Shown here piece after piece: positions 2,826-25,052 of a stretch of DNA of 28,326 nt. Under the pieces are notes generated by a model. The model saw nothing but the letters and a program-made list of their open reading frames with translations, ran no database searches and was not told the origin of the DNA. This DNA is from Thermoplasmatota archaeon. Lineage in GTDB: Archaea; Thermoplasmatota; Penumbrarchaeia; Penumbrarchaeales; Penumbrarchaeaceae. The DNA is taken from the NCBI GenBank assembly GCA_965234725.1, contig CBDDUX010000052.1, positions 1 to 28,326 of the forward strand, given 5' to 3'. The position numbers and the translations under genes were made by a program. How positions within the stretch are numbered: the first letter of the stretch is position 1; each line of letters starts with the position of its first letter.

Positions 2826-3217
2826 TCTTTCACGTTCTCCCTTATGAATTTGATGATATCTTCCATATGGGTCCCGGGTCCGAACACCCCTTTGATACCG
2901 GCCTTGTTAAGTTCGGGAATGTCCTCTTCCGGGATTATTCCTCCACCCATGACCAGAACATCATCCATCCCCTTTTCTTTCAATAGGTTGGTTACATCGG
3001 TGAAGAGGGTCATATGTGCTCCTGAAAGAAGGCTGAGGCCTATGACATCAACATCTTCCTGGATGGCTGTCTGTATCACCATTTCCGCGGACTGGTGGAG
3101 ACCCGTATAAATGACCTCCATTCCTGCATCCCTGAGTGCTCTTGCAACGACCTTGGCACCTCTGTCATGGCCGTCAAGACCGGGTTTTGCAACCAGTACC
3201 CTGATCTTCCTTTCCAT
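2822..3217 (-). CDS. Acyl-CoA mutase small, cobalamin-binding subunit (IcmB/Mcm-C type)
   Basis: [11 protein letters not shown] (DxHxxG), GLSLLSGAH and GGIIP. Best-spaced start is ATG 3217 after GGAGTGA; alternatives are 3223 and 3226. Confidence 0.93.
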
Positions 3218-3238
3218 CTTCATCACTCCAGTTTGACT

Positions 3239-4915: not shown

Positions 4916-4930
4916 ACGGACACCTCGATC

Positions 4931-5455
4931 TCAGAATTCGATCCCTTTCCTTGCAGCCACTCCCTTCTGGTAGAAGTGTTTAACTTCTCGCATCTCGGTG
5001 ACAAGGTCCGCGATGTCGATCAATTCCTGAGGGGCGTACCTTCCGGTGAAGATAAGCTCCATCCCAATGGGCTTATTGACTGCCAGTTCCAGGATATCTT
5101 CGACCTTCACCAGACCGAAATCGATCGCAACATTGATCTCATCCAGAATAACAAGGTCATGTTCCCCTTTACTGATGACCTGTTTCGCTCTTTCAAGTCC
5201 TCTTTCCGCGAGTTCAATATCCACCATCTCCGGTTCCTCTTTGGAAACGAACTCATCTCTCCCGTACTGTTCAATGGTGAATCCGGGGAGGAACCCAACT
5301 GAATCGATCTCGCTGTACCTTCTCCCCTTCATGAACTGTATCATGATGACCCTGCATCCGTCTCCTGAAGCCCTCAATCCGAGTCCAAGAGAGGCTGTGG
5401 TCTTTCCTTTCCCGTTCCCTGTATATACCTGGATATAACCGCGTTCGAAGGACAT
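4931..5455 (-). CDS. cobO: Cob(I)alamin adenosyltransferase (CobA/CobO/BtuR family)
   Basis: YTGNGKGKTTA, IQFMKG, LVILDEI, TGRYAP, ADLVTEM and GIEF. Likely start is ATG 5455 with an AGGGGA SD; the ORF track extends to 5518. Confidence 0.93.
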   Translation of the reverse strand: MSFERGYIQVYTGNGKGKTTASLGLGLRASGDGCRVIMIQFMKGRRYSEIDSVGFLPGFTIEQYGRDEFVSKEEPEMVDIELAERGLERAKQVISKGEHDLVILDEINVAIDFGLVKVEDILELAVNKPIGMELIFTGRYAPQELIDIADLVTEMREVKHFYQKGVAARKGIEF

Positions 5456-5596
5456 GGCCAATTCCCCTAATGTCCTATTCGATTTATTACTTTCTTCAAT
5501 AAGAAGACCATATGTCATATCTCAACTGTTTTTTATCAGTTCCATTGGTATGCTAGATAGAAACCTTTATTTTTTAAAATCCCGATGGGCGGCCGC
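5456..5596. promoter_or_regulatory. AT-rich divergent promoter region between the mutase operon and acyl-CoA dehydrogenase 2
   Basis: The flanking genes diverge. AAACCTTTATTTTTTAAAA at 5561-5579 resembles BRE/TATA. Confidence 0.5.
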
Positions 5597-6736: not shown

Positions 6737-6860
6737 ATCTGAAATTCATTGGGGGGCCATTTTGGAGGATCTCGATCATTTGAACGAAGAACGTATCTTG
6801 AGATGGAACCTTTCCGAGTTCCGGAATCATCTATATGATACCTCCATCATACTCCCTTCC

Positions 6861-7150
6861 AGAGGGAAGGACCTTATATTGACGGCATGGTACAGGGTAT
6901 TGCCTTTAGAGGTCGATCCCACTCTGATAGAACATCCCGCCGCACAGAAGACCGCTGCAGTCTTCCCTTCGGATAACGGAGGGGAGCGGGATGGTCAAGG
7001 CCTTCATCCTTCTGAACAAAGGAAACGAGGCAGGGAGGCGGTCCTCGGGGTATCCAGAACACCATGGAGGAGAACACCCCTCTGAAATAGCGATATAGAA
7101 AGATGGAGTTTGTAAAGGAAATACCGAAAACTCAATCAGGTAAGATAATG
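6861..7150 (+). pseudogene. Decayed C-terminal remnant of an AMP-forming acyl-CoA synthetase
   Basis: Three frames give RGKDLILTAWYRVLPLEVDPTLIEHPA, then MVKAFILLNKG (6991), then IQNTMEENTPLK*RYRKMEFVKEIPKTQSGKIM. These match the ANL-family A8 to A10 region (R.DD.I...GYRI.P.EVE..L..HPA, VKAFIVL, PKT.SGKI). Two frameshifts and a TAG at 7088. Confidence 0.8.
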
Positions 7151-7216
7151 GAAGGTCGATGGGAAAACCTCAATGGAAGATCAAAGAAAACGGATCCAGT
7201 AATCGGAGTGAGAGAA

Positions 7217-7981
7217 ATGAACATCGTGGTATGTGCAAAACAGGTTGTGGATGTTGGGGAGATCAAGTTGAATCCCTCCACCAACAAACCCGTGATCGAC
7301 GGGATCCCAAAGAAGATCAGCGATATCGACAAGAATGCCGTGGAGGAGGCGATCAGGATAAAGGATAAGGTAGGTGGTAAGATCACTATCCTGACCGTAG
7401 GCCCTCCGGACGCCAGGGAGAAGGTAAAGGAACTTCTTGCCATGGGGGCGGATGAGGGAGTGATCGTTCAGCCTCCGGAAAAGGCCGATTATCACCTTAT
7501 AGGTAAGGCGCTGGCAAAAGGAATCGAGAAGATAGGCGGTGTTGACCTTGTCCTCTGCGGGGAAGCTTCCATCGATATGTTCTCCGGACAGGTCGGTCCA
7601 AGGATAGCAGGATATCTCAACATCCCCCAGATCACCTATGCCTTCAAACTGGAGGCGGGAGGGGACCGGATCGTTGCTGATCGGAACATGGGGGATAAGA
7701 TGGTGAGGACGGAATCCTCCTACCCGACAGTCGTAACGGTCACTAAAGAGATCAATGAACCAAGGCTTCCGAGCCTAATGCAGATCCTTGGCTCAGCCAG
7801 TAAACCGATAAACAACTGGTCCCTGGCGGATATTGGAATGGAAGGGGACCAGCCAAAATTGAATGTGGTTGATGTAAACGGCATTGGGATGGAGAGGAAG
7901 AACATAGTCTTCAAGGATGACATTGACGAAGCAGTGAACGAACTTGCCAATAAATTGGCCAAGGATGGAGTCCTGGGGTGA
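7217..7981 (+). CDS. etfB: Electron transfer flavoprotein beta subunit
   Basis: MNIVVCAKQV, DKNAVEEAIRIK, LAMGAD, GQVGP and INEPRLPSL. True start is 7217 after a GGAGTGA SD; the 7103 extension belongs to the pseudogene. Confidence 0.93.
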   Translation: MNIVVCAKQVVDVGEIKLNPSTNKPVIDGIPKKISDIDKNAVEEAIRIKDKVGGKITILTVGPPDAREKVKELLAMGADEGVIVQPPEKADYHLIGKALAKGIEKIGGVDLVLCGEASIDMFSGQVGPRIAGYLNIPQITYAFKLEAGGDRIVADRNMGDKMVRTESSYPTVVTVTKEINEPRLPSLMQILGSASKPINNWSLADIGMEGDQPKLNVVDVNGIGMERKNIVFKDDIDEAVNELANKLAKDGVLG

Positions 7982-8986: not shown

Positions 8987-9514
8987 ATGAGCATAACAGA
9001 CTTGACCTCTATGGCAGAGGCGGATAAGGCCAGAAGGCTGGAGATCAACCAGAGGCTGCAGAAGCTGGCGGAGGAGGTTTCGGACCACTGTTATCAGTGT
9101 GCCAAATGCACTTCCGGTTGTGAGGCCCATAAACTGCTGGAACTGGAACCTCACAGGATCGTGGCCCTTTTGAAAAGGGGCCTTATAGACGAGTTGATCA
9201 ATTCCGAGATCATCTGGACCTGCATGAGCTGCTTCAAATGCAAGGAAAGGTGCCCTCAGAATGTGGCCCCTGTTAACATCTTATTCACCTTGAAGAACCT
9301 GGCAGTTGCAAGTGGAAAACAGGTCCCTGGTGATTATACGGCCATGCTCCAATCTGTCATGGGCATGGGCCTCATGCAGAACGAACAATCCGTTCCCACC
9401 AGGGAAGGGGAGACCCGCAATAGAGAGGAGCTGGGACTATGCCCCTGTTCCAAACCCATGGACCCGGTAAAGTTCCAGGGTATGATAATGACGGTAGCAA
9501 TGGAGAAAGTATAG
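8987..9514 (+). CDS. hdrC: Heterodisulfide reductase subunit C-like 2[4Fe-4S] protein
   Basis: CYQCAKCTSGC and IWTCMSCFKCKERCPQ; directly upstream of hdrB. Confidence 0.85.
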   Translation: MSITDLTSMAEADKARRLEINQRLQKLAEEVSDHCYQCAKCTSGCEAHKLLELEPHRIVALLKRGLIDELINSEIIWTCMSCFKCKERCPQNVAPVNILFTLKNLAVASGKQVPGDYTAMLQSVMGMGLMQNEQSVPTREGETRNREELGLCPCSKPMDPVKFQGMIMTVAMEKV

Positions 9515-9524: not shown

Positions 9525-10403
9525 ATGAAACTGGCAATATACCCTGGATGCCTCATGCCAACCGAGCAATATGCCTACGAGATCTCCATGAAGAAGGTCC
9601 TTCCGATCATTGGTGTGGAAACCGTGGACCTTGAGGGTTTCTCCTGCTGTGGTGAACCTCTGAAATCCATAAGTCAGATGATGACACTGACATTATCAGC
9701 GAGGAACATTGCCATCTGTGAGAAGGAAGGTCTGGATATCCTTGTCCCCTGTCCCATGTGCCATCTGGCCCTGAGCGAGGCCAAGAAGATCCTGAAGGGT
9801 GATGGAGAGATGTTGGCAAGGGTCAATGAGAAGCTTGCTGGAGAGGACCTTGAGTTCAAAGGTGTTTCTAAGATATACCATATCATCGACCTGGTCCATG
9901 ACTTAGTTGGGCTGGATGCATTGAAGGAAAAGGTTACCAGTCCGCTGGGTGACCTTGTTTTTGCCACGCACTACGGGTGTCATCTTCACAGACCCTCGGA
10001 ACTGGGAAGACCGGTTGATTCGGAGAATCCACAGAAGATGGAAAGGATCCTGGAAGCGCTTGGAGCGAAGACCAGGGACTATGCTGAGAAGCTTGATTGC
10101 TGCGGTGGACCTCTTCTTCCTGTCCATCCTGAAACATCCCTGGCAAAGACGGGACAGAAATTGAAATCGATACAGGACCAGGGATTCAGCGGGATGGCCC
10201 TTTCCTGCCCGTGGTGCCACAAGATGTATGATTCCAAACAGAAGAAAGCAGGTGAGACCGTGAGTGCAAAACTGTCGGTTCCCGTTCTCTATATTACTCA
10301 ATTGATGGGACTCGCCTTCGGTCTGGACAGATCCGAACTTGGACTCGAACTGAACATGAGCCCGGTTGAAAAGGTCCTTGAACCAAAGGAGGCGGCCCCA
10401 TGA
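9525..10403 (+). CDS. hdrB: Heterodisulfide reductase subunit B-like CCG-domain protein
   Basis: Two CCG domains: YPGC/SCCG/CPMC and HYGCH/DCCGG/CPWC. Confidence 0.9.
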   Translation: MKLAIYPGCLMPTEQYAYEISMKKVLPIIGVETVDLEGFSCCGEPLKSISQMMTLTLSARNIAICEKEGLDILVPCPMCHLALSEAKKILKGDGEMLARVNEKLAGEDLEFKGVSKIYHIIDLVHDLVGLDALKEKVTSPLGDLVFATHYGCHLHRPSELGRPVDSENPQKMERILEALGAKTRDYAEKLDCCGGPLLPVHPETSLAKTGQKLKSIQDQGFSGMALSCPWCHKMYDSKQKKAGETVSAKLSVPVLYITQLMGLAFGLDRSELGLELNMSPVEKVLEPKEAAP

Positions 10404-12358
10404 AGAAGATAGGGGTTTTCGTTTGCCACTGTGGTGTTAACATCGCATCTAAAGTGGATGTGAAAGAGGTTGCGGAATATGCTTCCAAGCTTGATGGTGT
10501 CGTGGTATCCACCGAATACAAATACATGTGTTCCGACCCTGGTGCAAAGCTGATAAAGGATTCCATTGCCGAGTATGACCTCGACGGGATAGTTGTTGCC
10601 AGCTGTTCTCCAAGGATGCATGAGCATACGTTCAGAGGGGTGGCCGAGAGCGGAGGCATGAATCCCTACAATGTTGAGATCACCAATATCAGGGAGCAGT
10701 GCTCATGGGCTCACGATGATCCGGTCGAAGCCACTGCCAAAGCAAAACAACTGGTGGCTGCAGCTGTATCGAAGGCCGCCCTTCTGGAATCCCTTGAGAA
10801 ATCAAGGACCCCCGTAACCTCTGAGGCGTTGGTCATCGGAGCGGGGATCGCAGGGATACAGGCTGCCCTTGAGATAGCTGATTCCGGATTCAAGGTCCAT
10901 CTTGTGGAGAAGGAACCCACTATCGGAGGAAGGATGGCCCAGCTGGACAAGACCTTTCCCACTCTTGACTGTTCATCCTGTATCCTGACACCCAAGATGA
11001 TGGATGTGAAGAACCATCAGAACATCGATCTGATGTCCTATTCTGAGGTCCTTTCTGTAGAGGGTAGTGTTGGGAATTACAGGGTCAAGGTCAGGAAGAA
11101 GGCCAGATATGTTGATATGGAGAAGTGTACCGGATGCAACGAATGTGCCATCGCATGCAGGTTGAAAGGCCATGTCCCGGATCCCTTCAACATGGGTATG
11201 GGAAAAAGGTCTGCCGCCTATATCTCATTCCCACAGGCCATACCGCTAAAAGCGACAATAGATCCAGACCATTGCCTCATGCTGAAGTTCGGGAAATGCG
11301 GTGACGGTCCTCTTTGTCAGAAAGCATGCGATCCCGGGGCAATTGATTTCACTCAGAAAGATGAGGAAGTGGAGTTGACGGTCGGGACCATCCTTGTGGC
11401 CACCGGATATGACCTCCTCGATGCAAGCAGATTGTTCGAGTATGGATATACCCGTTCCAAGGATGTAATAACCACAATGGAACTCGAGCGTCTGATCAGT
11501 TCTTCGGGTCCGACAGGAGGAAAGATCGTCCTCCCTTCGAACGGCGAATACCCGGATTCAGTCACATTCATACTATGCGCTGGATCCAGGGATGAGACCC
11601 AGTGCACATGGTGCTGCAGGATAGGTTGCATGTCCGCCCTCAAGCATGTATATCTACTGAGGGAGAAACTCGGACCCGAGACCGAGATCAACATCTGTTA
11701 CACGGATATCAGAAGTTTCGGCAAGGGATACGAGGAGTTCTACAGGAAGATAAGGGGAAAAGGTGTCAACCTCTTCAGGGGAAGACCCTCAGAAGTGCGG
11801 GTGAACCCCAAGGATATCACCATCGATGTCTTTGACACCACCACTAACAAACTTTTCCAGATAGGCACCAATATGGTGGTCCTTGCCCCTGCCCTGGTCC
11901 CGAGGGCTGATTCGGAGGAGTTCGCAAGGATACTCGGTCTATCCCGGAGCGGGGATGGATTCCTTATGGAGGCCCACCCCAAACTCAGACCGGTGGATAC
12001 GTTCACTAATGGCATCTTCATCGCCGGATGTGTCCAGAGCCCCAAGGATATCTCCGATACGGTGTCCCAGGCCTGCGGTGCGGCATCCCGCGCTCTTGGT
12101 ATACTTACTAAGGATGAACTCGAGAACGATCCTTTGATAGCATGGGTGGACCCGGAGGTATGTGTCGGATGCGGGGTCTGTGTGGAAGTTTGCGCATACA
12201 GCGCAAGGTCACTGAACGAGGTGACAGGCATAGCCGATGTTGATGATGCGCTCTGTGCGGGTTGTGGGGCCTGTATCGCCGCATGTCCGTCCAATGCGTC
12301 TACACACAAGAACTACACCAAACAACAGATGGTCAGAATGATCGACGAGGTGGTCTAG
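10400..12358 (+). CDS. hdrA: Heterodisulfide reductase subunit A, canonical single-module size (652 aa)
   Basis: GVFVCHCG, GAGIAG, LDKTFPTLDCSSC, inserted ferredoxin, CAGSRD, EAHPKLRPV and C-terminal 2[4Fe-4S]. Confidence 0.95.
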   Translation: MKKIGVFVCHCGVNIASKVDVKEVAEYASKLDGVVVSTEYKYMCSDPGAKLIKDSIAEYDLDGIVVASCSPRMHEHTFRGVAESGGMNPYNVEITNIREQCSWAHDDPVEATAKAKQLVAAAVSKAALLESLEKSRTPVTSEALVIGAGIAGIQAALEIADSGFKVHLVEKEPTIGGRMAQLDKTFPTLDCSSCILTPKMMDVKNHQNIDLMSYSEVLSVEGSVGNYRVKVRKKARYVDMEKCTGCNECAIACRLKGHVPDPFNMGMGKRSAAYISFPQAIPLKATIDPDHCLMLKFGKCGDGPLCQKACDPGAIDFTQKDEEVELTVGTILVATGYDLLDASRLFEYGYTRSKDVITTMELERLISSSGPTGGKIVLPSNGEYPDSVTFILCAGSRDETQCTWCCRIGCMSALKHVYLLREKLGPETEINICYTDIRSFGKGYEEFYRKIRGKGVNLFRGRPSEVRVNPKDITIDVFDTTTNKLFQIGTNMVVLAPALVPRADSEEFARILGLSRSGDGFLMEAHPKLRPVDTFTNGIFIAGCVQSPKDISDTVSQACGAASRALGILTKDELENDPLIAWVDPEVCVGCGVCVEVCAYSARSLNEVTGIADVDDALCAGCGACIAACPSNASTHKNYTKQQMVRMIDEVV

Positions 12359-13300
12359 ATGGCAGCTGCCAATGATGAAATCGCACCTGCCGGAGCTTTC
12401 CAAAAGAGAGGGTCGGTCCTTGTGATAGGTGGAGGCATCTCAGGTATCCAGTCATCACTGGACCTGGCGGATGCCGGTTTCAAGGTGTACCTGGTGGATG
12501 AGAACAGGTCCATTGGAGGCACCATGCCTCAACTTGACAAGACCTTTCCAACCAATGACTGTTCAATGTGTATTCTGGCTCCCAAGCTGGTTGCCACTGC
12601 CAGACATCCGAATATCCAGATCATCACCGCTGCAGAGGTCAAGGACCTGCAGGGAGAACCCGGTAACTTCAAGGTGAAGGTCTTGAAATATGCCAGGTCC
12701 GTTGATGAGGATATATGCAATGGGTGCGGAGTCTGTGTCGAGAACTGTCCGGTAAGATATGTCCCTCAGCTTCCGGAGATTGTCGATATAAGAGAGGTCC
12801 TCGGAAAAGATGAGATCGAAAAGCTTGAGGGGATCATTTCAGGTTTTAAAAAGGACCAGAGTTCTCTGGTACCAGTGCTGGAAGCCATTAATGAGGATTA
12901 CAATTATCTCCCTGAGAGCTCCCTCCGGTTCGTATCACAGGAACTGGATGTTCCTCTTTCCCAGGTTTACAACGTTGCAACGTTCTTCACAGCCTTTTCA
13001 TTGACACCCAGGGGAAGACATACCATCAAGGTATGTCTCGGGACTGCCTGCCATGTAAGAGGAGCTCCAAGAGTACTGGATGATATCACCAGAGAGCTTG
13101 GGATCGAACCCGGTCAAACCACAGAAGATGGTGAGTTCACATTGGAGACCGTCAACTGCCTGGGAACCTGCGCACTTGGCCCTGTGGTCATGATCGATGA
13201 GGAGTACCACATGGTCAAACCCGGTTCCTTCCTGAAACTGCTTGAGGATTTCAAAACAGGAAATGCTGTACCCATTGAACCCCCGGAGGTGAAAGAATGA
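12359..13300 (+). CDS. Fusion of an HdrA N-terminal FAD-binding segment plus half-ferredoxin with a NuoE/HydC-like [2Fe-2S] domain
   Basis: The first ~130 aa carry GGGISG, LDKTFPTNDCSMC and CNGCGVCVENCP. The rest carries YNYLP, VATFF, VCLGTACHVRG and NCLGTCALGP. SD GAGGTG. Confidence 0.9.
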   Translation: MAAANDEIAPAGAFQKRGSVLVIGGGISGIQSSLDLADAGFKVYLVDENRSIGGTMPQLDKTFPTNDCSMCILAPKLVATARHPNIQIITAAEVKDLQGEPGNFKVKVLKYARSVDEDICNGCGVCVENCPVRYVPQLPEIVDIREVLGKDEIEKLEGIISGFKKDQSSLVPVLEAINEDYNYLPESSLRFVSQELDVPLSQVYNVATFFTAFSLTPRGRHTIKVCLGTACHVRGAPRVLDDITRELGIEPGQTTEDGEFTLETVNCLGTCALGPVVMIDEEYHMVKPGSFLKLLEDFKTGNAVPIEPPEVKE

Positions 13301-15156
13301 CCGGAGGGAGCAAACTTGGATCCGTAACTGACCTTGAGAAACTGATAGGCACTCTTTCGAAGAAAAGAAATGCCAACAAGAATAGGACGATCGTGGTCCC
13401 GGGCGGAACATGCGGGAATGCAAGGGGAGCCGGAAAGGTCTATGATAAGGTCATGGAGGCTCTTGAGAAGCTCTCGATCAAGGATGTTGATGTAAGAAGG
13501 ACCGGATGCATAGGTTACTGTGCTCAGGAACCTCTCCTCTTGATCCTCCCGGAACGGACCATTTACACATCGGTGGACCCTGAGAAGGTGGGAGATATTC
13601 TGGATTCAACCTTCAAGAAAGGAAAACCTCTTGAAAACGCTCTCTTCAAGGATCCTGATACGGGGAAACCCGTTGAGAAAATGGAGGATCTTCCCTACTA
13701 CAGGAAACAGCAGAGGAAAATTACGGGGAACACCGAGAACGTAGATCCTGAACGGATAGAGGATTACATGTCATTAGGAGGATACAGTTCCTTTCTCAAG
13801 GCCCTTTCATTGACACCTGAGGAGGTAATAGCAGAGATGAAGTCCTCCGGACTGAGAGGTAGAGGTGGAGCCGGTTTCTCCACCGGTACGAAGTGGGAGC
13901 TAGCAAGGAAGAACGATGGTGAGCGCAAATACATCGTCTGCAATGCCGATGAGGGCGATCCCGGAGCATTCATGGACCGAAACCTCCTGGAAGGCAACCC
14001 TCACAATGTACTCGAGGGGATGCTGATCGGTGCTCATGCCATCGGTGCCTCCAAAGGATTCGTTTATGTCAGGAAGGAGTATCCTCTAGCCGTCAAGAGG
14101 TTGAGGAATGCCATCTCTCAGATGAGGGAGTACGGACTCCTTGGGAATGATATCCTGGGAACAGGAATGGACCTCGATCTCGAAGTATACGAGGGAGCCG
14201 GTGCTTTTGTCTGCGGTGAGGAAACCGCCCTTATGGCCTCGATCGAGGGAAGGGCCGGAGAGCCCAGGCCCAGGCCACCCTTCCCTGCTCAGAGCGGCCT
14301 ATGGGGAATGCCGACGAACATCAACAACGTGAAATCGTGGGCCAATGCAACTTTAGTCCTTGGAAAAGGTTCCAAATGGTATTCCAAAATAGGTACCAAG
14401 GGAAGCCCGGGAACCATGCTCTTCTCCCTTGTTGGAAAGACCAACAATTCCGGCCTTGTGGAGGTCCCCATGGGGATCACCCTCAGGGAGATGGTCTTCG
14501 AGATAGGGGGAGGGATCGCATCAGGTAACGAGTTCAAAGCGATCCAGACAGGCGGTCCCTCGGGGGGTTGTCTTCCTCGAGATATGCTTGACCTTTCAGT
14601 TGATTATGACTCTCTGAAAGAGGCCGGGGCCATGATGGGTTCCGGTGGTATGATAGTCATGGACAACAAGACCTGCATGGTCGATGTCGCAAGGTACTTC
14701 GTAAGATTCCTCAAGGATGAATCATGCGGAAAGTGTGCTCCATGCCGTGAGGGATTGGTACAGATGGATATCATCCTGACAGGGATCACAGAAGGGAACG
14801 CCTCAATTGAGGACCTGGATAAACTGGAGGTCCTTGCCGCTACAATGGCTGACGCTTCACTCTGTGCTCTCGGACAGACAGCTCCCAATCCCGTTCTTAC
14901 CACCCTGAAATATTTCAGGGATGAGTACGAGGCCCATATAAACAGCGGGAAATGTCCGGCTGGTGTCTGCAAGAAGCTCACAACATATTCCATCAATGGA
15001 AAGAAGTGCACAGGATGCACTCTCTGCGCTCTGAAATGTCCTGTAAAAGCTATTAGCGGTGAGAAGAAGAAGGTCCACATCATCGATCAGGCCCTCTGTG
15101 TGAAGTGCGGACAGTGTCATGATGTATGCAATTTCTCTGCTGTGGAGGTGGTTTGA
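13297..15156 (+). CDS. NuoF/HydB-like FMN and NAD(H)-binding subunit, long form
   Basis: SGLRGRGGAGF, CNADEGDPGAFMDR, GAGAFVCGEETAL, GGPSGG, ESCGKCAPCREG, CPAGVC and a C-terminal 2[4Fe-4S]. N-terminal thioredoxin-like Fe-S domain (GTCG..GCIGYC). Confidence 0.93.
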   Translation: MTGGSKLGSVTDLEKLIGTLSKKRNANKNRTIVVPGGTCGNARGAGKVYDKVMEALEKLSIKDVDVRRTGCIGYCAQEPLLLILPERTIYTSVDPEKVGDILDSTFKKGKPLENALFKDPDTGKPVEKMEDLPYYRKQQRKITGNTENVDPERIEDYMSLGGYSSFLKALSLTPEEVIAEMKSSGLRGRGGAGFSTGTKWELARKNDGERKYIVCNADEGDPGAFMDRNLLEGNPHNVLEGMLIGAHAIGASKGFVYVRKEYPLAVKRLRNAISQMREYGLLGNDILGTGMDLDLEVYEGAGAFVCGEETALMASIEGRAGEPRPRPPFPAQSGLWGMPTNINNVKSWANATLVLGKGSKWYSKIGTKGSPGTMLFSLVGKTNNSGLVEVPMGITLREMVFEIGGGIASGNEFKAIQTGGPSGGCLPRDMLDLSVDYDSLKEAGAMMGSGGMIVMDNKTCMVDVARYFVRFLKDESCGKCAPCREGLVQMDIILTGITEGNASIEDLDKLEVLAATMADASLCALGQTAPNPVLTTLKYFRDEYEAHINSGKCPAGVCKKLTTYSINGKKCTGCTLCALKCPVKAISGEKKKVHIIDQALCVKCGQCHDVCNFSAVEVV

Positions 15157-18100
15157 TGATCAAATTGACGATCGATTCAGTTGAGTGCCAGGCAGAGGAA
15201 GGAGAGACGGTCCTTCAGGTTGCAAAGAGGAACAACATCAAGATCCCAACTCTCTGCCATCATCCTGCCATACCTCCATATTCCGCATGCAGAGTCTGTA
15301 TCGTAGAGGTGAAACAGGGGAACAGGACCAGGATCACGGCCTCTTGTTCTCTGCCGGTATCCGAGGGAATGGAAGTGCTAACCGGTTCGGAGAGGGTCCT
15401 TCGATCGAGAAAGGTCCTTCTTGAACTCTATCTGGCCAGGTGTCCGGATTCGGAGGATCTCAAGGAATTCGCCTCTGAACTTGGTGTTGATACAACAAGG
15501 TTCACCTCGTATAGGGAGGTGGATGACAAATGTATCCTGTGCGGACTTTGCGTTAATGTGTGCAGGGAAAGCGGGAACACAACCCTCGGTTTCATAGGGA
15601 GGGGCGATAAAAGAAAGATCGGTACCCCCTTCGATGAGGCATCTGCCCATTGTTTGACCTGCGGAGCCTGCGAGTTCGTGTGTCCCACAGGCAGAATTGA
15701 CCTTTCCGAGATCTCATCTCGGAAACCTATCCCCATCAAGGGGAAGTTCGATGAGGGTCTGTGCCAGAGGGGGGCCATTGATATTCCATTCCCCCAGGCT
15801 ATCCCTAATGTCCCGATGATCGACCGGGAATCATGCAACTATTTCATAAATGGAAGCTGCAAGTTCTGTGAGACGGTATGCGAACCAGGTGCATTGAGGC
15901 ATGATTCGGAGGATGAGGAGATAGAAATTGAAGTTGGTTCTGTGATCATGTCCACAGGATTCGAGGAATATGTTCCACCCACAGGCGGAAGCTACGGATA
16001 CAACATCTATCCGAACGTTCTGACCTCCATCCAGTTCGAGAGGATGCTCTCCGCATCCGGACCTTACAAAGGGCACGTTAAAAGGATCTCTGACGGTATG
16101 GAACCTAAAAAGATCGCCTGGCTCCAATGTGTGGGATCAAGGGATGAAAGCTGTGACAATCCTTACTGTTCCTCTGTTTGCTGCATGTATTCAATCAAAG
16201 AGGCGGTGATCGCAAAGGAGCATGCTCCGGGTCTCGACGCCCACCTCTACTATATGGACATGAGGTCCTTCGGAAAGGATTTCGACAGATATTTCGAGAG
16301 GGCCAGGGACGAATACGGGGTCAAGTTCAGAAGGTCCAGGGTCCCCAGGATCGAACAGAACAAGGAGACCAAGGATCTGACCATCAGGTATGTCGATGAA
16401 TCTGGCAAGGTAATGACAGAGGATTACGATATGGTTGTTCTGTCGGTGGGTCTGGAACCCTGCAGTTCGCTCGGAGACCTGGCAGGAGCATTGAATGTGA
16501 ACCTGAACGGATACGGATTCGTTGAGACCGATCCATATTCCCATGTGACCACAAGCCGGCCAGGTGTCTATGCATCCGGGACGGTAACCGAGCCCAAAGA
16601 CATACCGGAGAGCGTAACCCAGGCTTCCGCTGCAGCCGCCGAGGCAGCAAGGGATATATCCTCTGCAAGGGGAACGGATGTCACGATCAAGGACTATCCA
16701 CGGGAAAGGTCTATCATGAACGACTTCCCGAGAATAGGTGTGTTCATCTGCCACTGCGGGATAAACATAGGAGGAGTCATTGATGTACCAAAGGTGGTTG
16801 AGAGCACCAAGACCCTTCCTTACGTAGTACTGGCTGATGATGAGACGTTCACCTGTTCCTCCGATTCACTGGAACGCATCAAGGATAGGATAGTGGACCT
16901 TGGGTTGAACAGGATCGTTGTTGCATCCTGCACACCCCGGACGCATGAGCCGATATTCCAGGACACTCTAAAGGAGGCAGGACTGAACCCCCATCTATTC
17001 GAGATGGTCAACCTCAGGGACCAGAACTCATGGGTCCACAGAGGCAACCCGGTCCTTGCAACCAAGAAAGCCATTGAAACCGTTCGCATGGGAGTGATAA
17101 AGGTAGCAGATATGGTCCCTGTGGAACATCATAAGGTCCCGGTCATCCCGGAAGCCCTTGTGATCGGTGGTGGTGTTGCCGGAATGAGCTCTTCTCTGTC
17201 AATGGCTGATCAGGGCTTCAAGGTCCATCTTGTGGAGAGAGAGGAGAAGTTGGGGGGACTACTGAACGATATCTACCTCGGGGCTGGCCAGGAGGACCCC
17301 GTGGAGCTTTTAAAGACCACCGTGGAGAAGGTGATGTCCCATCCGAACATTATCGTTTATACCTCATCGGAATTGATGGAGATAACCGGATACGTTGGGA
17401 ATTTCACCTCCAAGATCGGTAATTCCGATGGTTCGCAGATGGTTCAGCATGGTGTTGTTGTGGTTGCAACTGGAGCGGACGCGTATGAACCGACAGAGTT
17501 CTCCTATGGAAAAAGCGACCGGATAATACGTCAAAAGGAGTTGGAGAAGGATATCGCCAAGGGATCTGGTTATCTGAAGGACCTAGGTGAGGTCGTAATG
17601 ATCCAGTGTGTGGGATCCAGGAACGAGGAGCATCCGTATTGTTCCCGTATTTGCTGTACCAATGCTTTGAAGAATGCCGTAAGATTGAAGGAGATGAAGC
17701 CCGAACTGCCAATCTATGTTATGTATAGGGACATCAGGTCCTACGGTTTCAGGGAGGACCGTCTCTATTCGAAGGCAAGGAAGCTGGGGGTATTGTTCTT
17801 CCAGTATGATCCCGAAGGCGAGCCCCAAGTGGATGTGAAGGGTAAAGAGATCACTGTTAAGGTCTGGGACCGGGTCCTTCAGAGGGATGTGGTATTCCAC
17901 CCGGACCGCCTGGTCCTTTCCACCGGAATGGTCCCGAAGGACAATTCGGATATCGCCCAGAAACTGAAGGTCCCCTTGAACCAGGACGGGTATTTCTCAG
18001 AGGCACATATGAAGCTCAGACCCGTGGACTTCTCCGGGGACGGTATCTTCCTCGCCGGAACCGCGCATTCCCCCAGATTCCTTGAAGAGGCGATCCTGCA

Positions 18101-18392
18101 GGGGAAGGCGACGGCAGCCAGGGCCGGGACAATCCTATCGAGGGAATTCCTGGAGACCAAAGGTAATATTGCAAGGGTTTCCAGCAGGAACTGTGCCGGA
18201 TGCCAGCTCTGTGTTCAGATATGCCCGTATGATGCTATTGATTACGATGAGGAGAAAAAGGTCGTGAACGTGAACGAGATACTCTGCCAGGGATGCGGTG
18301 CATGCGCCGCGATCTGTCCAAGCGGCACCTCCCAGCAGACCTCCTTCACCAAGCGTCAGATAATGTCCATGATCGATGCAAGTTTGAGATGA
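15156..18392 (+). CDS. Fusion of NuoG/HydA-like N-terminal Fe-S domains with the remainder of a double-module HdrA
   Basis: IPTLC..ACRVC..ASC [2Fe-2S], CILCGLC and CLTCGAC. HdrA sequence follows: FDEGL..PQAIP, QCVGSRD..CSSVCC, GVFICHCG, a second GGGVAG module, EAHMKLRPVD and C-terminal 2[4Fe-4S]. Start at a TGATG overlap after GGAGGTG. Confidence 0.9.
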   Translation: MIKLTIDSVECQAEEGETVLQVAKRNNIKIPTLCHHPAIPPYSACRVCIVEVKQGNRTRITASCSLPVSEGMEVLTGSERVLRSRKVLLELYLARCPDSEDLKEFASELGVDTTRFTSYREVDDKCILCGLCVNVCRESGNTTLGFIGRGDKRKIGTPFDEASAHCLTCGACEFVCPTGRIDLSEISSRKPIPIKGKFDEGLCQRGAIDIPFPQAIPNVPMIDRESCNYFINGSCKFCETVCEPGALRHDSEDEEIEIEVGSVIMSTGFEEYVPPTGGSYGYNIYPNVLTSIQFERMLSASGPYKGHVKRISDGMEPKKIAWLQCVGSRDESCDNPYCSSVCCMYSIKEAVIAKEHAPGLDAHLYYMDMRSFGKDFDRYFERARDEYGVKFRRSRVPRIEQNKETKDLTIRYVDESGKVMTEDYDMVVLSVGLEPCSSLGDLAGALNVNLNGYGFVETDPYSHVTTSRPGVYASGTVTEPKDIPESVTQASAAAAEAARDISSARGTDVTIKDYPRERSIMNDFPRIGVFICHCGINIGGVIDVPKVVESTKTLPYVVLADDETFTCSSDSLERIKDRIVDLGLNRIVVASCTPRTHEPIFQDTLKEAGLNPHLFEMVNLRDQNSWVHRGNPVLATKKAIETVRMGVIKVADMVPVEHHKVPVIPEALVIGGGVAGMSSSLSMADQGFKVHLVEREEKLGGLLNDIYLGAGQEDPVELLKTTVEKVMSHPNIIVYTSSELMEITGYVGNFTSKIGNSDGSQMVQHGVVVVATGADAYEPTEFSYGKSDRIIRQKELEKDIAKGSGYLKDLGEVVMIQCVGSRNEEHPYCSRICCTNALKNAVRLKEMKPELPIYVMYRDIRSYGFREDRLYSKARKLGVLFFQYDPEGEPQVDVKGKEITVKVWDRVLQRDVVFHPDRLVLSTGMVPKDNSDIAQKLKVPLNQDGYFSEAHMKLRPVDFSGDGIFLAGTAHSPRFLEEAILQGKATAARAGTILSREFLETKGNIARVSSRNCAGCQLCVQICPYDAIDYDEEKKVVNVNEILCQGCGACAAICPSGTSQQTSFTKRQIMSMIDASLR

Positions 18393-18407: not shown

Positions 18408-18833
18408 ATGAGCGAAGAATTTGAACCGAAGGTCGTTGGGTTCCTGTGCAACTGGTGCTCCTATGCCGGAGCTGACCTAGCGGGAACGAGCCGGATACAG
18501 TATCCATCCAATATCAGGGTGATCAGGGTCATGTGCTCCGGGTCCGTTGACAGTATCTATGTGAACAGGGCGCTGATCGAGGGTGCTGATGCTATCCTTA
18601 TCGGCGGCTGCCATCTGGGTGACTGCCATTATCTCAACGGGAACTACAAGGCCAGAAGAAAGATGGTGCTGTTGAAGAACATTCTCACTACACTTGGCAT
18701 GGAGCCGGAAAGGATCTGGGTCAAGTGGATATCCGCATCCGAGGGCCAGAAGTTCGCTGATACGGTCAAGGAGATAGTGGATGAGACCAAGAAGCTGGGC
18801 CCGAACCCTCTTGGCCAGAGGTGGAACGTTTAG
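18408..18833 (+). CDS. mvhD: MvhD [2Fe-2S] adaptor subunit, copy 1
   Basis: FLCNWCSYAGAD, RVMCSG, GCHLGDCHY and SASEG. Confidence 0.93.
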   Translation: MSEEFEPKVVGFLCNWCSYAGADLAGTSRIQYPSNIRVIRVMCSGSVDSIYVNRALIEGADAILIGGCHLGDCHYLNGNYKARRKMVLLKNILTTLGMEPERIWVKWISASEGQKFADTVKEIVDETKKLGPNPLGQRWNV

Positions 18834-18840
18834 AGGTGTT

Positions 18841-19944
18841 ATGATGACTGGTTACGAACTACCGATAAAGGATGACGTTCCGACAACGGTTAATGAGATG
18901 TTGAAGGATTGGTTGGTCAAAGGTAAGGTTGATGCCGTAATTGCCATGCAGGAAACCCCCACCGGAAAGTCCGCCTTTCCGGCAATGGTCTCCGATCCAT
19001 CAAAACTGAAAACGAATGTTTTCGCACCCCTACTACCTGTTTCCACCGGTACGATGTTATCTCGATTGACCAAGGTCAGAGGATTCGAGAAACCCGTGGC
19101 AGTGGTCCTCCGTTCCTGTGAACTGAGGGCTCTGGTGGAACTTGTCAAGCTGAACCAGGCAGATCTGATGAATATCATCCTGGTTGGTGTGGACTGTCCA
19201 GGGACATTCCCCATGAACACATTTTCCTCCTATCCAGGGAAGGAATCCCCCACTGATGCAGTGCTAAAAGGCGGTGAGGCCAGTAAATACATGAGGACCG
19301 CCTGTCTCAACTGCAAGGACCCGGTGGTGGACAAGGCGGATATCGTGATCGGGATCTACGGCGCTGACCTGAAGAAAGGTCTAATTCTGGATGTATTGAC
19401 AGATGCCGGAAATGGACTAATTGATGGTATGGAGCTCAAAGAGATCAAGGACTCCGGGAAGAGAAAGAAGGCCGTGGAAGAAGTGAGGAAGGAGAAGCAG
19501 AAGAACAGGGAGGCCTTCCTCAAGGAGAAGTCAGATATCAAAGGTATTGACAGGCTATTGGAGTTCTTCGATACCTGCGTCAACTGCCATAACTGCATGG
19601 GAGCATGCCCGATATGCTACTGCAAGGAGTGCCTTTTCGAGTCTTCGGTCTTCGACATGGAAGCCAATAAATACATGTCCAAATCCAAGGGAAAGGGGGC
19701 ATTCAAGACACCGACGGATTCCCTTCTGTTCCATGTTACGAGGTTCAACCACATGATACTCTCATGTGTGCAGTGCGGTCTTTGTGAGCAGGCCTGCCCA
19801 TCGAACATCCCACTCATGGATATAATCACAGGAATTGCCGAAAACGCCCAGAAGGAGTTCGAATACCTTCCGGGTTCCGATCCGGAGGCCCCCGTACCCA
19901 TGGTGGTCTACAGGGAGGAGGAATTCCAGGATGTGGGGGAGTGA
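18841..19944 (+). CDS. FdhB/FrhB-family iron-sulfur protein
   Basis: VAVVLRSCELRALVEL, GVDCPGT, RTACLNC, CVNCHNCMGACPICYCKEC and FHVTRFNHM..SCVQCGLCEQACP. Start 18841 or 18844 after GAGGTG. Confidence 0.8.
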   Translation: MMTGYELPIKDDVPTTVNEMLKDWLVKGKVDAVIAMQETPTGKSAFPAMVSDPSKLKTNVFAPLLPVSTGTMLSRLTKVRGFEKPVAVVLRSCELRALVELVKLNQADLMNIILVGVDCPGTFPMNTFSSYPGKESPTDAVLKGGEASKYMRTACLNCKDPVVDKADIVIGIYGADLKKGLILDVLTDAGNGLIDGMELKEIKDSGKRKKAVEEVRKEKQKNREAFLKEKSDIKGIDRLLEFFDTCVNCHNCMGACPICYCKECLFESSVFDMEANKYMSKSKGKGAFKTPTDSLLFHVTRFNHMILSCVQCGLCEQACPSNIPLMDIITGIAENAQKEFEYLPGSDPEAPVPMVVYREEEFQDVGE

Positions 19945-19947: not shown

Positions 19948-20610
19948 ATGGAAGCCGTTGATTCGAGGAAGATCGATCCGAATTTCAAGTTCGAGATAGC
20001 CAAACAGGAAGGCGGAGAAGGCATAATGAAATGCTATGCCTGCGGAACCTGCACTGCGAGATGTCCCGAGATGGATGTCAAGGAGGAATGGAATCCCCGA
20101 ACTGTGATCAGGAAGGCATTGCTTGGCCTGAAGGAGGAGGTATTGACCTCGGAGTTCATCTGGATATGTTCGGCTCATTACAGATGTCTTGAAAAATGCC
20201 CCCAGAAGGTTAACGTAAAAGGATTGATGAACCAGATAAGGGAGCAGAGGATCAGAGATGATCAAGATGGGGTTGTAGTTGAAGGAAGGGATGATTCCTT
20301 CAAATACATGATAGCCGAAGGGGAGTCCGGAGGGGAGATCTACAACTGTTTCTCATGCGGGACATGTACTGCAGGCTGCCCCGAAAGGGACCTTGACCCG
20401 CTTTATTCCCCCAGGAAGGTCATCAAGGCATCGCTTCTGGGAATGAAAAAGAAGGTCTATGAGAACAGGTTCGTTGAGATCTGCTCCACGCATTACAGAT
20501 GTCTGGAGCAGTGTCCCCAGGGTGTCGAGATCCCTAAACTCATGTATGCGATCAGGGAACTGGCAATAAAGGAAGGATATTCAAGGGAGGGTCTTGATGA
20601 GTGCAGGTAG
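19948..20610 (+). CDS. Tandem-duplicated HdrC-like iron-sulfur protein
   Basis: Two repeats: CYACGTCTARCP..CSAHYRCLEKCPQ and CFSCGTCTAGCP..CSTHYRCLEQCPQ. Confidence 0.8.
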   Translation: MEAVDSRKIDPNFKFEIAKQEGGEGIMKCYACGTCTARCPEMDVKEEWNPRTVIRKALLGLKEEVLTSEFIWICSAHYRCLEKCPQKVNVKGLMNQIREQRIRDDQDGVVVEGRDDSFKYMIAEGESGGEIYNCFSCGTCTAGCPERDLDPLYSPRKVIKASLLGMKKKVYENRFVEICSTHYRCLEQCPQGVEIPKLMYAIRELAIKEGYSREGLDECR

Positions 20611-23600: not shown

Positions 23601-23656
23601 ATCAGATACTTGCGATGATCAAAGCTCTTAGTACATGCTCCGGAGGTGGTAACTGA
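20597..23656 (+). CDS. hdrA: Large double-module HdrA (~1020 aa), intact
   Basis: GGGIAG module with ferredoxin insert and CSSMCC, internal GVFICHCG domain, second GGGVAG module with CSRTCC, and C-terminal 2[4Fe-4S]. Confidence 0.92.
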   Translation: MSAGSTTGAVAVVGGGIAGVQSALDLADMGFKVYLLEKSPAIGGIMAMLDKTFPTNDCSMCILSPKLVDCSRHPNIHIMTLAEVKGVEGKAGNFKVKVHQKPRYIDIEKCTSCGDCESVCPIKIPSQFEQGLVMRKAAYKYYAQAIPNSFVIDKEGIPGYRGCIDCGACTKACKAGAVDHSMKAKDLELDVGAVILAMGSAPFDPKIKRELGYGRFKNVVTSLEFERILSASGPYEGKILRPGDGKHPKKIAWIQCVGSRDRNIDQEFCSSMCCMYTAKEAVIAKEHESSIEPTIFYIDVRSFGKDFDRYIERAKKEQDIRYVRSRISEIYENDCGDLQIRYEDTEGELHEETYDMVVLSIGLCMTGDRSKVLKDLGLDVNDFGFAFSNQKDPVSLVRPGIFMAGSFLEPQAIPESVMQASAAASQVAALLRDSRGSLVTARPEYKERDVSKEEARIGVFICHCGINIGSQVDVPKVVEYARTLPNVVYASDNLYTCSEDTQIKLGEIIKSEKLNRVIVAACTPRTHEPLFKKSMAEAGLNPHLLEMTNIREHCSWVHSDPELATLKSKELISMTVAKSRLLESIPAMKIDVDQTALVIGGGVAGMTSAISLADQGFKTVLLEKEDRLGGRLNYLRFTVEGIDIDELLKDLKGKVEGHENIEVILGASISGIKGYVGNYDVTIKSNEVEKEHRIGAIVVAAGTREHVPTSYGYGDDDRILTQSEVEGYIGGLKPGEIRSGETFVMIQCVESREGERNYCSRTCCMGSLKNALKIKEINPRAEVYILYRDLMTYGFWERYYRKARDLGVIFMQYSIDGKPEVDIGEKVSVKVMEPMLQEEIEIGADHLILATGMDPIEDNEEIAKLLKVPLNQDGYFLEAHVKLRPVDFSTRGVYLAGSCHTPKFIGESIYQAQAAAARAATILSSPTLEAEPNIAVVDVDMCSGCRTCISLCPYNAIDSVTEEIDGVEVTHAQINEGLCQGCGTCVAACPSGAINQRGFKDDQILAMIKALSTCSGGGN

Positions 23657-24075
23657 TGGGAGACTTCGAGCCTTCGGTGGTCGCATTTCTGTGTAATTGG
23701 TGCTCGTATGCCGGAGCGGACCTTGCTGGTACTTCCCGGTTGAAATATCCTCCCAACGTCAGGTCCATTCGTGTCATGTGTTCCGGAAGGGTGGACCCGG
23801 TGTTCGTTCTGGATGCTATAAAGGAAGGGATCGATGGAGTGTTGGTGGCAGGATGTCATCCGGGGGACTGCCATTATCAATCCGGTAATTACAAGACCAA
23901 CAGGAAGGTCAAGCTGATCAAGAAGATGCTTTTCGAATTGAACATTGATCCCAAAAGGGTGAGGTTCGAGTTCATCTCCGCTTCCGAGGGTCAAAAGTTC
24001 GCAGATGTTGTAACGGATTTTGTGGGACAGCTCAAGGAAATGGGTCCCAATCCGCTTAAGGGGGAATGCCAGTGA
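23656..24075 (+). CDS. mvhD: MvhD [2Fe-2S] adaptor subunit, copy 2
   Basis: FLCNWCSYAGAD, RVMCSGRV and GCHPGDCHY; TGATG overlap with hdrA. Confidence 0.95.
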   Translation: MGDFEPSVVAFLCNWCSYAGADLAGTSRLKYPPNVRSIRVMCSGRVDPVFVLDAIKEGIDGVLVAGCHPGDCHYQSGNYKTNRKVKLIKKMLFELNIDPKRVRFEFISASEGQKFADVVTDFVGQLKEMGPNPLKGECQ

Positions 24076-25052
24076 CAGGAGAGAAACTGAAATTCGCATT
24101 CTACTGGGCTGCCAGCTGCGGGGGCTGCGAGATAGCGGTCCTTGACATAGATGAAAAGATCCTGGAGGTCGCAGCTGTCGCTGATATCCTCTTCTGGCCT
24201 GTTGCGATAGATACCAAATACTCTGATGTAGAGAAGATGGAAGATGGTTTCATCGATGTCTGTTTCTTCAACGGGGCCATCAGGAACTCGGAGCAGGAGG
24301 AACTGGCCCATTTATTGAGAAAGAAATCCAAGGTACTGGTGGCATTCGGCTCATGTGCGATGACCGGAGGAATTCCAGGGCTTGCAAATATGTCGAACAG
24401 GGAAGGTGTCTTTGATACCGTCTATCACGATAATGCATCCATAGAGAATCCTGATGGGACCGAACCCGAGGTGTCTTCTCAGGTTCCGGAGGGTGAACTG
24501 ACAATACCTGAATTCTATGATACTGTTAGGACCCTGGACCAGACAGTGGATGTCGATTACTACTTACCAGGTTGTCCACCACCAACCAACCTGATCCTGA
24601 CTGCGGTTGATGCGATAATCAAGGGAGAACTCCCCCCCAAAGGATCCGTGATCGCTCCTGCCAAATCGGTGTGTGATGAATGCAAGTACGAGAAATCCGA
24701 TAAGAGGATAACGGAGATCAAGAGAATATACGAAGTTGAGAAGCTGGAGGATAAATGTCTTCTCGAGCAGGGGATAATCTGCATGGGTCCTGCAACCAGA
24801 GGAGGGTGTGGGGCTCCTTGCACAGAAGCGAACATGGCCTGCACCGGTTGTGGAGGTCCCACTCCGAATTCTCTTGACCAGGGGGGGAAGATGATATCCG
24901 CTCTTGCTTCGATCCTTGGGTTGGACGGAGAGGAGAACTATTCCGATGAAGAGGTGGATGCTTTAATTGATAAAGTTGTGGACCCGATAGGGACCTTCTA
25001 CAAATACGGTCTTCCCTCTGCCCTTATCAAAAGGAAGGTGATGAAAAAATGA
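24066..25052 (+). CDS. mvhG: [NiFe]-hydrogenase small subunit, group 3c (MvhG)
   Basis: SCGGC, FGSCA, PGCPP, CDEC and CMGPATRGGC..C..CTGC; no Tat leader. Alternative start GTG 24072. Confidence 0.92.
   Translation: MPVTGEKLKFAFYWAASCGGCEIAVLDIDEKILEVAAVADILFWPVAIDTKYSDVEKMEDGFIDVCFFNGAIRNSEQEELAHLLRKKSKVLVAFGSCAMTGGIPGLANMSNREGVFDTVYHDNASIENPDGTEPEVSSQVPEGELTIPEFYDTVRTLDQTVDVDYYLPGCPPPTNLILTAVDAIIKGELPPKGSVIAPAKSVCDECKYEKSDKRITEIKRIYEVEKLEDKCLLEQGIICMGPATRGGCGAPCTEANMACTGCGGPTPNSLDQGGKMISALASILGLDGEENYSDEEVDALIDKVVDPIGTFYKYGLPSALIKRKVMKK

Follow-up and report, generated by a model that had tools for sequence, protein, structure and literature searches.

In a 28,326-nucleotide stretch of a Thermoplasmatota archaeon genome (positions 1 to 28,326 of contig CBDDUX010000052.1, assembly GCA_965234725.1; referred to here as the window), three coupled plus-strand genes at 12359-18392 encode a tandem HdrA that is divided between two polypeptides, with a NuoE/F/G-like cassette of the bifurcating HydBC/Bfu type lying within the ferredoxin domain that is inserted in its first HdrA unit. 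We consider it probable that the three genes together make up one composite enzyme, which we call Hdr-Bfu, and that it works as proposed below. By flavin-based electron bifurcation, anaerobes can make a living close to the thermodynamic limit, and only a handful of bifurcation module types are known to us; Hdr-Bfu, present in uncultured sediment archaea and in bacteria, would be a second and topologically different coupling of HdrA-type and Bfu-type modules.

Architecture of the three genes

The first gene (12359-13300; P0001, 313 amino acids [aa]) encodes HdrA residues followed by a NuoE/BfuC domain. Its HdrA portion amounts to the first ∼135 residues of a tandem HdrA, and residues 18 to 150 align without gaps at 56% identity (BLASTP, E 7e-47) to residues 9 to 141 of P0004, an intact tandem paralog in the same window that served as the yardstick for comparison. 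Residues 18 to 113 form the first part of a TrxR-like flavin adenine dinucleotide (FAD) domain, with GGGISG and DCSMC (C68/C71), and the last HdrA-type element before BfuC is the first ferredoxin motif (motif 1, CNGCGVCVENCP; residues 120 to 131, nucleotides 12716-12751), just past which true HdrA likeness stops. Residues 20 to 137 match residues 146 to 263 of a solved HdrA (5ODC_A), and residues 157 to 298 constitute a full NuoE/HydC-type 2Fe-2S_thioredx domain (PF01257, E 3e-45 in Pfam), for which the best PDB match is 7T2R_C. The first-pass annotation of this DNA had read the gene in the same way, as following the paralog up to the first ferredoxin motif and then turning into NuoE.

HdrA sequence returns in the third gene (15156-18392; P0003, 1078 aa in the database gene call). 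We place its beginning at 15156 because of a TGATG overlap with the preceding gene, in agreement with the database call and with the first-pass annotation; residue numbers of P0003 refer to the frame opened at 15126, so that K358 of P0003 is K348 of P0125. The first ∼190 residues are a Fer2_4 plus 2x[4Fe-4S] domain of the NuoG/BfuA type and correspond to a short (type 2) BfuA/NuoG-N domain (15156-15710) that has a [2Fe-2S] site and two CxxCxxCxxxC motifs and lacks the His-ligated cluster motif; residues 12 to 195 match residues 5 to 187 of the BfuA chain 9MQX_A. In frame behind BfuA lies the remainder of HdrA unit 1 (15711-16715), comprising ferredoxin motif 2 (nucleotides 15834-15881), the rest of the TrxR1 FAD domain, a C..C...CC cluster motif, Lys358, and the second FAD motif. 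HdrA unit 2 follows (16716-18392), with an N-terminal-type [4Fe-4S] site, a TrxR2 domain with its own GGGVAG, and a C-terminal 2x[4Fe-4S] domain. Residues 176 to 1085 of P0003 align to residues 111 to 1011 of P0004 at 47% identity over 919 columns (BLASTP), and K358 falls on K280 of the paralog. HdrA-specific likeness restarts at P0003 residue ∼200 (nucleotide ∼15726, P0004 residue ∼122), as had been noted earlier by eye; BLAST also put the second BfuA Cys motif (residues 176 to 187) onto the HdrA motif that P0001 already provides.

In these alignments, the HdrA part of P0001 and that of P0003 fit the intact P0004 end to end, with an overlap confined to the motif region that BLAST can place twice. 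Residues 195 to 457 of P0003 match residues 251 to 509 of 5ODC_A, and from the 5ODC_A ranges of the two pieces we locate the break within the ferredoxin domain that is inserted in the first HdrA unit, which is where the first-pass annotation had placed the NuoE/F/G-like insertion.

The middle gene (13297-15156; P0002, 619 aa) encodes a complete BfuB/HydB-type subunit made up of an N-terminal Trx-like [2Fe-2S] domain, a flavin mononucleotide (FMN)/NAD(H) core, an N3-type [4Fe-4S] site, and a C-terminal 2x[4Fe-4S] domain. Residues 33 to 616 match the bifurcating HydB/NfnB chains 7T2R_B (745 bits), 9N5U_B, and 8A6T_B, and the complex I subunit NuoF matches over residues 149 to 550 only. According to the Bfu family description, the N-terminal Trx-like and C-terminal ferredoxin domains mark BfuB within that family (PMC9304861). 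As P0002 carries both of these extra domains, we read the cassette as BfuC-BfuB-BfuA with a short, type 2-like BfuA, and the domains that characterize BfuB, BfuC, and BfuA are all present in it. Judged by domain content, the cassette is of the HydBC/Bfu (bifurcating) type and is not a respiratory NuoEFG; the earlier label of a NuoE-NuoF-NuoG (HydCBA-like) module is corrected accordingly.

The start and stop codons of these genes abut (TAG immediately followed by ATG at 12356-12361) or overlap (ATGA at 13297-13300 and TGATG at 15154-15158), and GGAGGTG-like sites stand upstream of 13297 and of 15156, in keeping with the translational coupling that was claimed from the start. Logan contigs from an independent study (run X2, ∼96-97% identity; contigs, not raw reads) cover 12000-13966 and 14197-16223 and span both domain junctions and both gene boundaries. 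Run X1, which may be the source sample, bridges the junctions too; we made no use of depth or of short joints of <95% likeness, which come from related organisms and conserved motifs.

Shared cofactor sites and complex model

The first FAD site is divided over two chains, as the first-pass annotation had deduced: one chain carries GxGxxG and DCxxC, and the other carries the Lys along with the proximal cluster and the second FAD motif. In every solved HdrA and in BamE this FAD domain belongs to one polypeptide, but here stop codons and two other frames lie between its parts, as is conserved in 9 other loci; the features expected of an HdrA are present, namely GxGxxG with DCxxC, the proximal cluster with its Lys, and two ferredoxin motifs, the last of these on different chains. 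Conservation extends to all of these elements. Across 22 N-piece homologues, GxGxxG (residues 24-29), D67, C68, C71, the motif 1 cysteines C120, C123, C126, and C130, and the BfuC [2Fe-2S] ligands C226, C231, C267, and C271 are invariant. The same is true across 20 C-piece homologues of C325, C338, C342, C343, and K348 (P0125 numbering), of the BfuA [2Fe-2S] cysteines, of both BfuA motifs, of motif 2, and of the unit 2 ligands.

The arrangement of ferredoxin-type Cys motifs bears directly on how the pieces would assemble. There is one motif on P0001 and there are three on the N-terminal part of P0003, a count that had been given correctly, and all 16 cysteines are invariant in the respective 22 and 20 homologues. 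The two BfuA motifs form a self-contained two-cluster domain, as in the 247-aa chain 9MQX_A, and the same cluster count is given for BamI in a preprint (10.64898/2026.04.10.717634). HdrA motif 2 is therefore left partnerless on its own chain, which makes motif 1 on P0001 the sole candidate partner. This 1+3 parity implies that the ferredoxin domain would be built from two chains. Since each cluster of the 2x[4Fe-4S] ferredoxin fold is ligated by three cysteines of one motif and one of the other, both clusters would be inter-chain.

We modeled C-piece residues 100-520 together with N-piece residues 1-150, each with its own alignment, and obtained an ipSAE of 0.86 in each of 3 runs, as opposed to 0.01 for the best of 3 controls. 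Of 80 solved complexes, 58 reached the score mark, as did 2 of 110 mismatched pairs; the mark is a rough guide here, as the pieces were given their own alignments. The runs gave 393 to 439 contacts, ≥94% of which were common to them, with a partner pLDDT of 83. In the best-defined contact, residues 20-23 of P0001 strand-pair with residues 259-266 of P0125 in the Rossmann sheet, and residues 119-140 of P0001 are placed against residues 224-249 (motif 2) and 164-175 (the second BfuA motif) of P0125. The model shows predicted pieces that fit like one HdrA, which is not proof of binding, and it agrees with the two-chain ferredoxin that the first-pass annotation had suggested on the grounds of motif parity.

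Occurrence and variants

Among the matches listed for P0001, 120 of 120 relatives cover 80-100% of the protein, at identities of 54-93%, and 117 have FAD-type and NuoE Pfam matches together. In a separate listing of 120 longer proteins, three are further fused forms, two with an HdrA-N::NuoE::NuoF fusion (P0394 and P0395) and one of 1356 aa (P0396). A library clustered at 50% identity contains 8 full-length fused representatives among its best 150 matches, 4 (418-436 aa) with the HdrA N-terminal domain. The 120 relatives listed for P0003 comprise 49 of the BfuA::HdrA form (1077-1098 aa), 60 HdrL-like proteins of ∼1500 aa, and 11 that are of other types or truncated. Relatives of ∼830-880 aa (P0202, P0239, and others) were considered as a third split form and set aside, as they come from contigs of 2.7-6.5 kb and may be truncated calls.

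A search for HdrA-N::NuoE beside NuoG::HdrA, the natural sequel to the first-pass annotation, found the arrangement well beyond this genome. In contigs from one genome per species, both halves of P0001 were matched in 13 of the 80 loci kept, and the full order of HdrA-N, NuoE, NuoF, NuoG-N, and HdrA remainder is present in 9 of the 13: in an archaeon (L001), Spirochaetes (L002), Desulfobacterales (L003, L004, and L006), Eubacteriales (L007), an Acidobacteria-type bacterium (L008), L018, and Dehalococcoidia (L020). In locus L005 (Thermoplasmata), it is a single, canonical HdrA that is split in this way, and contig ends truncate three of the 13 loci. When the phylum was sampled evenly, the fused frame turned up in 17 of 201 genomes, spread over 13 of 111 genera. 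The split design thus occurs in archaea and in bacteria labeled as at least five phyla, and it is widespread, neither rare nor peculiar to the genome studied; recurring as it does in independent assemblies, the pattern cannot be due to chance.

The N-piece is not always joined to NuoE. In L006, L018, L020, and L076 it is encoded by a gene of its own, which ends a few residues past the CP of motif 1 and is followed by a separate NuoE gene; the free piece is 132 aa long in L076 and 162 aa in L020, and in L006 and L018 it is known from frame translations only. Given these free-standing and fused variants, we regard the cut after motif 1 as the constant trait and the NuoE fusion as frequent but optional. 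Two Desulfobacterales-type copies of the free gene (L006:8061-8354 and L018:8055-8348) have an in-frame TGA at the position of Cys71 (DCAM*IISP versus DCSMCILAP), which probably encodes selenocysteine. Selenocysteine is known in HdrA, and its use at the C71 position would mean that the site is under selection. Gene callers would cut the small N-piece gene at this TGA.

Other variants affect the cassette or the copy number. L076 (773-9175, Dehalococcoidia) has an unsplit tandem HdrA, MvhD, and separate NuoE, NuoF, and NuoG-N genes, in a BamEFGHI-like order, and the start of a split copy (free HdrA N-piece, NuoE, and NuoF) adjoins this unsplit one. A 127-aa open reading frame (ORF) stands between NuoE and NuoF in three loci (L002:2965-3348, L007:8888-9271, and L008:8857-9240); going by place and size, we took it for the BfuB N-terminal Trx-like domain encoded as a separate gene. 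The NuoF gene of L007 encodes 1022 aa, and L008 has ∼2.9 kb of extra genes between NuoF and the NuoG-N::HdrA gene.

The flanking genes recur as well. In all 7 of the related split loci with room for it, MvhD is encoded immediately after the split module, and after MvhD the split loci encode an FrhB-like protein or MvhGA, with FrhB/FdhB-like relatives in L001, L018, and L020 and, weakly, in L005. HdrC and HdrB are encoded upstream here and in L001, L006, and L007. Public names of the pieces include "NADH:ubiquinone oxidoreductase subunit E," "NAD(P)H-dependent oxidoreductase subunit E," and "FAD-dependent oxidoreductase," and metabolic reconstructions that rely on such names will therefore overlook the complex or take it for part of complex I.

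Proposed function and alternatives

From homology and the complex model, we propose that the N-piece would supply what the Rossmann sheet lacks in the first FAD domain, and that motif 1 would pair with motif 2 across chains, with both clusters ligated 3+1. The candidate bifurcating site would then be common to two chains, with Cys68/Cys71 on one and Lys358 plus the proximal cluster on the other, and the two BfuA clusters would prolong the electron path of the HdrA ferredoxin arm as far as the FMN/Fe-S site of Bfu. Because this arm is the low-potential branch in solved HdrA and in BamE, Bfu would replace free ferredoxin or BamBC. HdrBC would serve the high-potential branch and MvhD, with the FrhB-like protein or Mvh hydrogenase, the mid-potential port, so that with these partners all three HdrA ports would be occupied. 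Such a complex would place two bifurcation modules in series, bifurcation being assigned by homology, and would reversibly connect NAD(H) and ferredoxin both with a couple of the thiol/disulfide or ETF type and with a mid-potential donor, H2 or some other. With its candidate bifurcating flavin and two [4Fe-4S] clusters placed where two subunits meet, the architecture would also offer a natural "split-protein" handle on the gating of the HdrA flavin site.

We further suggest, tentatively and as a possibility that may well prove wrong, that Hdr-Bfu is an unrecognized but widespread two-stage bifurcating class in which the low-potential electron of HdrA goes directly to the Bfu site through the two-chain ferredoxin domain, with no free ferredoxin in between. 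If so, four couples would be balanced in one complex, namely the MvhD donor (e.g., H2), the HdrBC thiol or ETF couple, NAD(H), and ferredoxin, and assembly itself would become a point of control, given a flavin site and clusters that the chains share. In Thermoplasmatota, a single site of the scaffold would accept either the Bfu cassette or a one-chain NfnB-like insert, as plug-ins that can replace each other.

Several points count against the composite enzyme in the form proposed. HdrA has been solved as one chain, and the passing score of the complex model may for this reason reflect memory of the fold; the model also comes without cofactor geometry. The equivalence to Cys59, Cys62, and Lys280 of BamE rests on identical numbering in P0004, and which of the two FADs would bifurcate is chosen by analogy. 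The proposed wiring is without characterized precedent: in Bam, Bfu enters BamE by way of the C-terminal ferredoxin domain and BamF, not the inserted domain. The module found at the same site in HdrL is generally regarded as an NAD(P)H input, and the arm would accordingly be an entry and not an exit.

This last point leads to a different view of the same architecture, in which the cassette is a plain NADH or NADPH input through the ferredoxin arm, as the HdrL insert is thought to be, and there is no second bifurcation. We think this unlikely, although much in the HdrL-like proteins speaks for it. Their GltD/NfnB-like module occupies the same inter-motif site, as in P0175 (1499 aa), where it lies between the same two Cys motifs and scores 526 bits on NF009410. 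Among the matches listed, they are the nearest relatives of the HdrA part, at 61-74% identity compared with 47% for the paralog in the window. Seven sampled HdrL-like proteins nest in the archaeal split clade with SH-aLRT values of 95-100 in two quick trees, which were built from 23 hand-chosen rows and have midpoint roots only and weak deep forks (78). The literature regards HdrL as NADH-linked. What tells against a plain input is BfuB itself, which keeps both HydB-specific domains and a full-length match of 745 bits; a plain dehydrogenase needs neither domain. That the HdrA pieces stay apart, with the N-piece either vestigial or serving some separate purpose on BfuC, and with unit 1 a flavin-free scaffold, strikes us as very improbable. 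Noncatalytic HdrA units do exist, the second FAD of BamE being structural and not catalytic according to the preprint (10.64898/2026.04.10.717634). Against this stand the invariance of the N-piece FAD and Cys motifs across archaea and bacteria, the probable selenocysteine at the C71 position, the retention of the N-piece as a free gene beside the cassette in four loci, the exact complementarity of the break, and a complex model that fits reassembly. Finally, the window comes from a metagenome-type assembly in 114 contigs, which invites the suspicion of misassembly, a chimeric contig, a frameshifted gene, or decaying pseudogenes, but contigs of another study span both junctions, other organisms share the gene order in 9 loci, and the reading frames are uninterrupted and coupled at their starts and stops, so that we give an artifact hardly any chance at all.

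Genomic context

The three genes of Hdr-Bfu belong to a redox gene array that forms one long plus-strand run across 5585-26950 of the window. Upstream, an acyl-CoA dehydrogenase gene, etfB, and etfA precede hdrC (8987-9514), hdrB (9525-10403), and a canonical hdrA (10400-12358, 652 aa) that abuts the split module. Directly downstream are genes for an MvhD/FlpD adaptor (mvhD, 18408-18833) and an FrhB/FdhB-like Fe-S protein (18781-19944), the latter with a weak FrhB_FdhB_C match plus 2x[4Fe-4S] and probably with a real start later than 18781. They are followed by a double HdrC-like protein (19948-20610), the intact tandem (BamE-like) paralog P0004 (20594-23656, 1020 aa), and a second mvhD, mvhG, mvhA, and a maturation protease gene (23656-26950). 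In view of the neighboring etfBA and acyl-CoA dehydrogenase genes and of the link from BamD to ETF, ETF is a candidate high-potential partner in this organism, an analogy that we offer as a lead only. We considered the operon as a benzoyl-CoA reductase and rejected this, as there is no tungsten AOR (BamB) gene nearby; the one match to PF01314 (AFOR/AOR family) in the genome is an AFOR on contig C14, not on the window contig C52.

The genome (3.5 Mb, 97.65% complete) has all of its HdrA-type genes within the window, and all of them besides the split one are whole, which supports the two pieces being each other's partner. Close relatives of the proteins bear names that point to an uncultured Thermoplasmatota archaeon. 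Further NuoG-N/NuoF-like genes on contigs C8 (a 1143-aa frame) and C82 may belong to other Bfu-type complexes. The DNA of the window recurs in marine-sediment metagenomes.

On the minus strand at 1884-5518, translations judged by eye indicate a MeaB-like GTPase, the small and large subunits of methylmalonyl-CoA mutase, and a corrinoid adenosyltransferase. These mutase-type genes adjoin two acyl-CoA dehydrogenases and etfBA, which hints that the redox array may serve acyl-CoA or amino-acid fermentation. Between the acyl-CoA dehydrogenase gene and etfB lies an ORF of 107 aa (6762-7085), and the long etfB frame, starting at 7103, opens with EFVKEIPKTQSGKI, which we take to resemble the C-terminal end of acyl-CoA synthetases; 6762-7220 may be the leftover of a degraded ligase gene. 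At the far end of the window (27001-28326), G+C falls to 34% compared with ∼50% elsewhere, and a minus-strand ORF (27643-28302) has a TIR_2 domain (E 3e-12), so this is possibly a foreign or defense-related insert at the operon end.

Comparison with known systems

To our knowledge, class II benzoyl-CoA reductase is the sole characterized enzyme that couples HdrA-type and Bfu-type bifurcation, and the first-pass annotation named the right relatives in BamE with BamGHI and in HdrL. The Bam[(BC)2DEFGHI]2 complex of Geobacter metallireducens resembles the system described here in having a tandem HdrA (BamE), an MvhD-type BamF, an HdrBC-like BamD, and a Bfu module (BamGHI) with a short BfuA. The preprint (10.64898/2026.04.10.717634) describes BamE as a fused HdrA dimer with the bifurcating FAD in its first unit, together with Lys280 and a Cys59-Cys62 pair, and BamGHI as a HydBC-type confurcating module that feeds BamE via BamI, the C-terminal ferredoxin domain, and BamF. 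In the same account, the inserted ferredoxin domain of BamE is the low-potential exit to BamBC, and BamD hands high-potential electrons to ETF. P0004 shows the same three residues at identical numbers (Cys59, Cys62, and Lys280), for which the split counterparts are C68 and C71 of P0001 and K358 of P0003. BamE is one chain, however, and BamGHI are described as separate subunits that dock through BamI/BamF on the C-terminal ferredoxin domain, whereas the split module has Bfu attached covalently to the inserted ferredoxin domain.

The MvhAGD-HdrABC complexes of methanogens (5ODC, 8RVU, and 7BKB) are the best structural templates for both HdrA pieces and share the cofactor motifs, and their HdrBC and MvhD partners are encoded in the split-module operon too. 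Canonical HdrA differs in being a single chain of 650 aa that dimerizes and passes low-potential electrons to free ferredoxin, without an NAD(H) module. Members of the Bfu family (HydABC, NiFe-HydABCSL, NfnABC, Stn, and WOR-Bfu) share the BfuB/BfuC core and the type 2-like BfuA, but the main text of the family description lists no Bfu class in which BfuC and BfuA are fused to halves of another flavoprotein (PMC9304861).

In topology, the closest parallel is with HdrL and HdrA-NfnB, where a tandem or long HdrA likewise has its inserted ferredoxin domain interrupted by an NAD(P)H-oxidizing flavin/Fe-S module. HdrL1-3 were described for Desulfobacterium autotrophicum (PMC2702500), and the ANME-1 proteins HdrA9-11 (HdrA-NfnB) have an NfnB-like insertion of ∼500 aa in the ferredoxin domain (PMC9012536). 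A cluster of Syntrophobacter fumaroxidans combines hdrABC, an FdhB-like Fe-S gene, mvhD, and hdrL (PMC5947623) and so mirrors the operon context of the split module. The HdrL insert is one GltD/NfnB-like domain of ∼500 aa and the protein remains one chain; in the split module, the insert is a three-subunit HydBC/Bfu-type cassette, HdrA is cut into two polypeptides, and neither P0001, P0002, nor P0003 has a GltD-type match. The split insertion point is also ∼30 residues earlier, right after motif 1, compared with after QAIPN..IDKE in HdrL. The sixty HdrL-like proteins of ∼1500 aa (in the range P0175-P0240) come, where a source is named, from Thermoplasmatota/Thermoplasmata. The nesting of the seven sampled ones inside the archaeal split-type clade in the quick trees suggests that the plug-in module was exchanged on one scaffold.

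The first-pass annotation knew of no characterized example of the interleaved architecture. In the literature covered, which does not extend to a 2021 review of HdrA modules or to supplements, we met with no account of an HdrA divided by a Bfu/NuoEFG cassette, and for the three-chain split the claim of novelty appears to hold; it has to be narrowed in that a one-chain NAD(P)H insertion at the same site is already published, and because of that precedent we see the interleaving as a variant and not as a new principle. Both modules, their cooperation, and the insertion site are thus known already, and what is apparently new is that three chains interleave, that flavin and cluster sites would span two chains, and that Bfu is placed on the ferredoxin arm.

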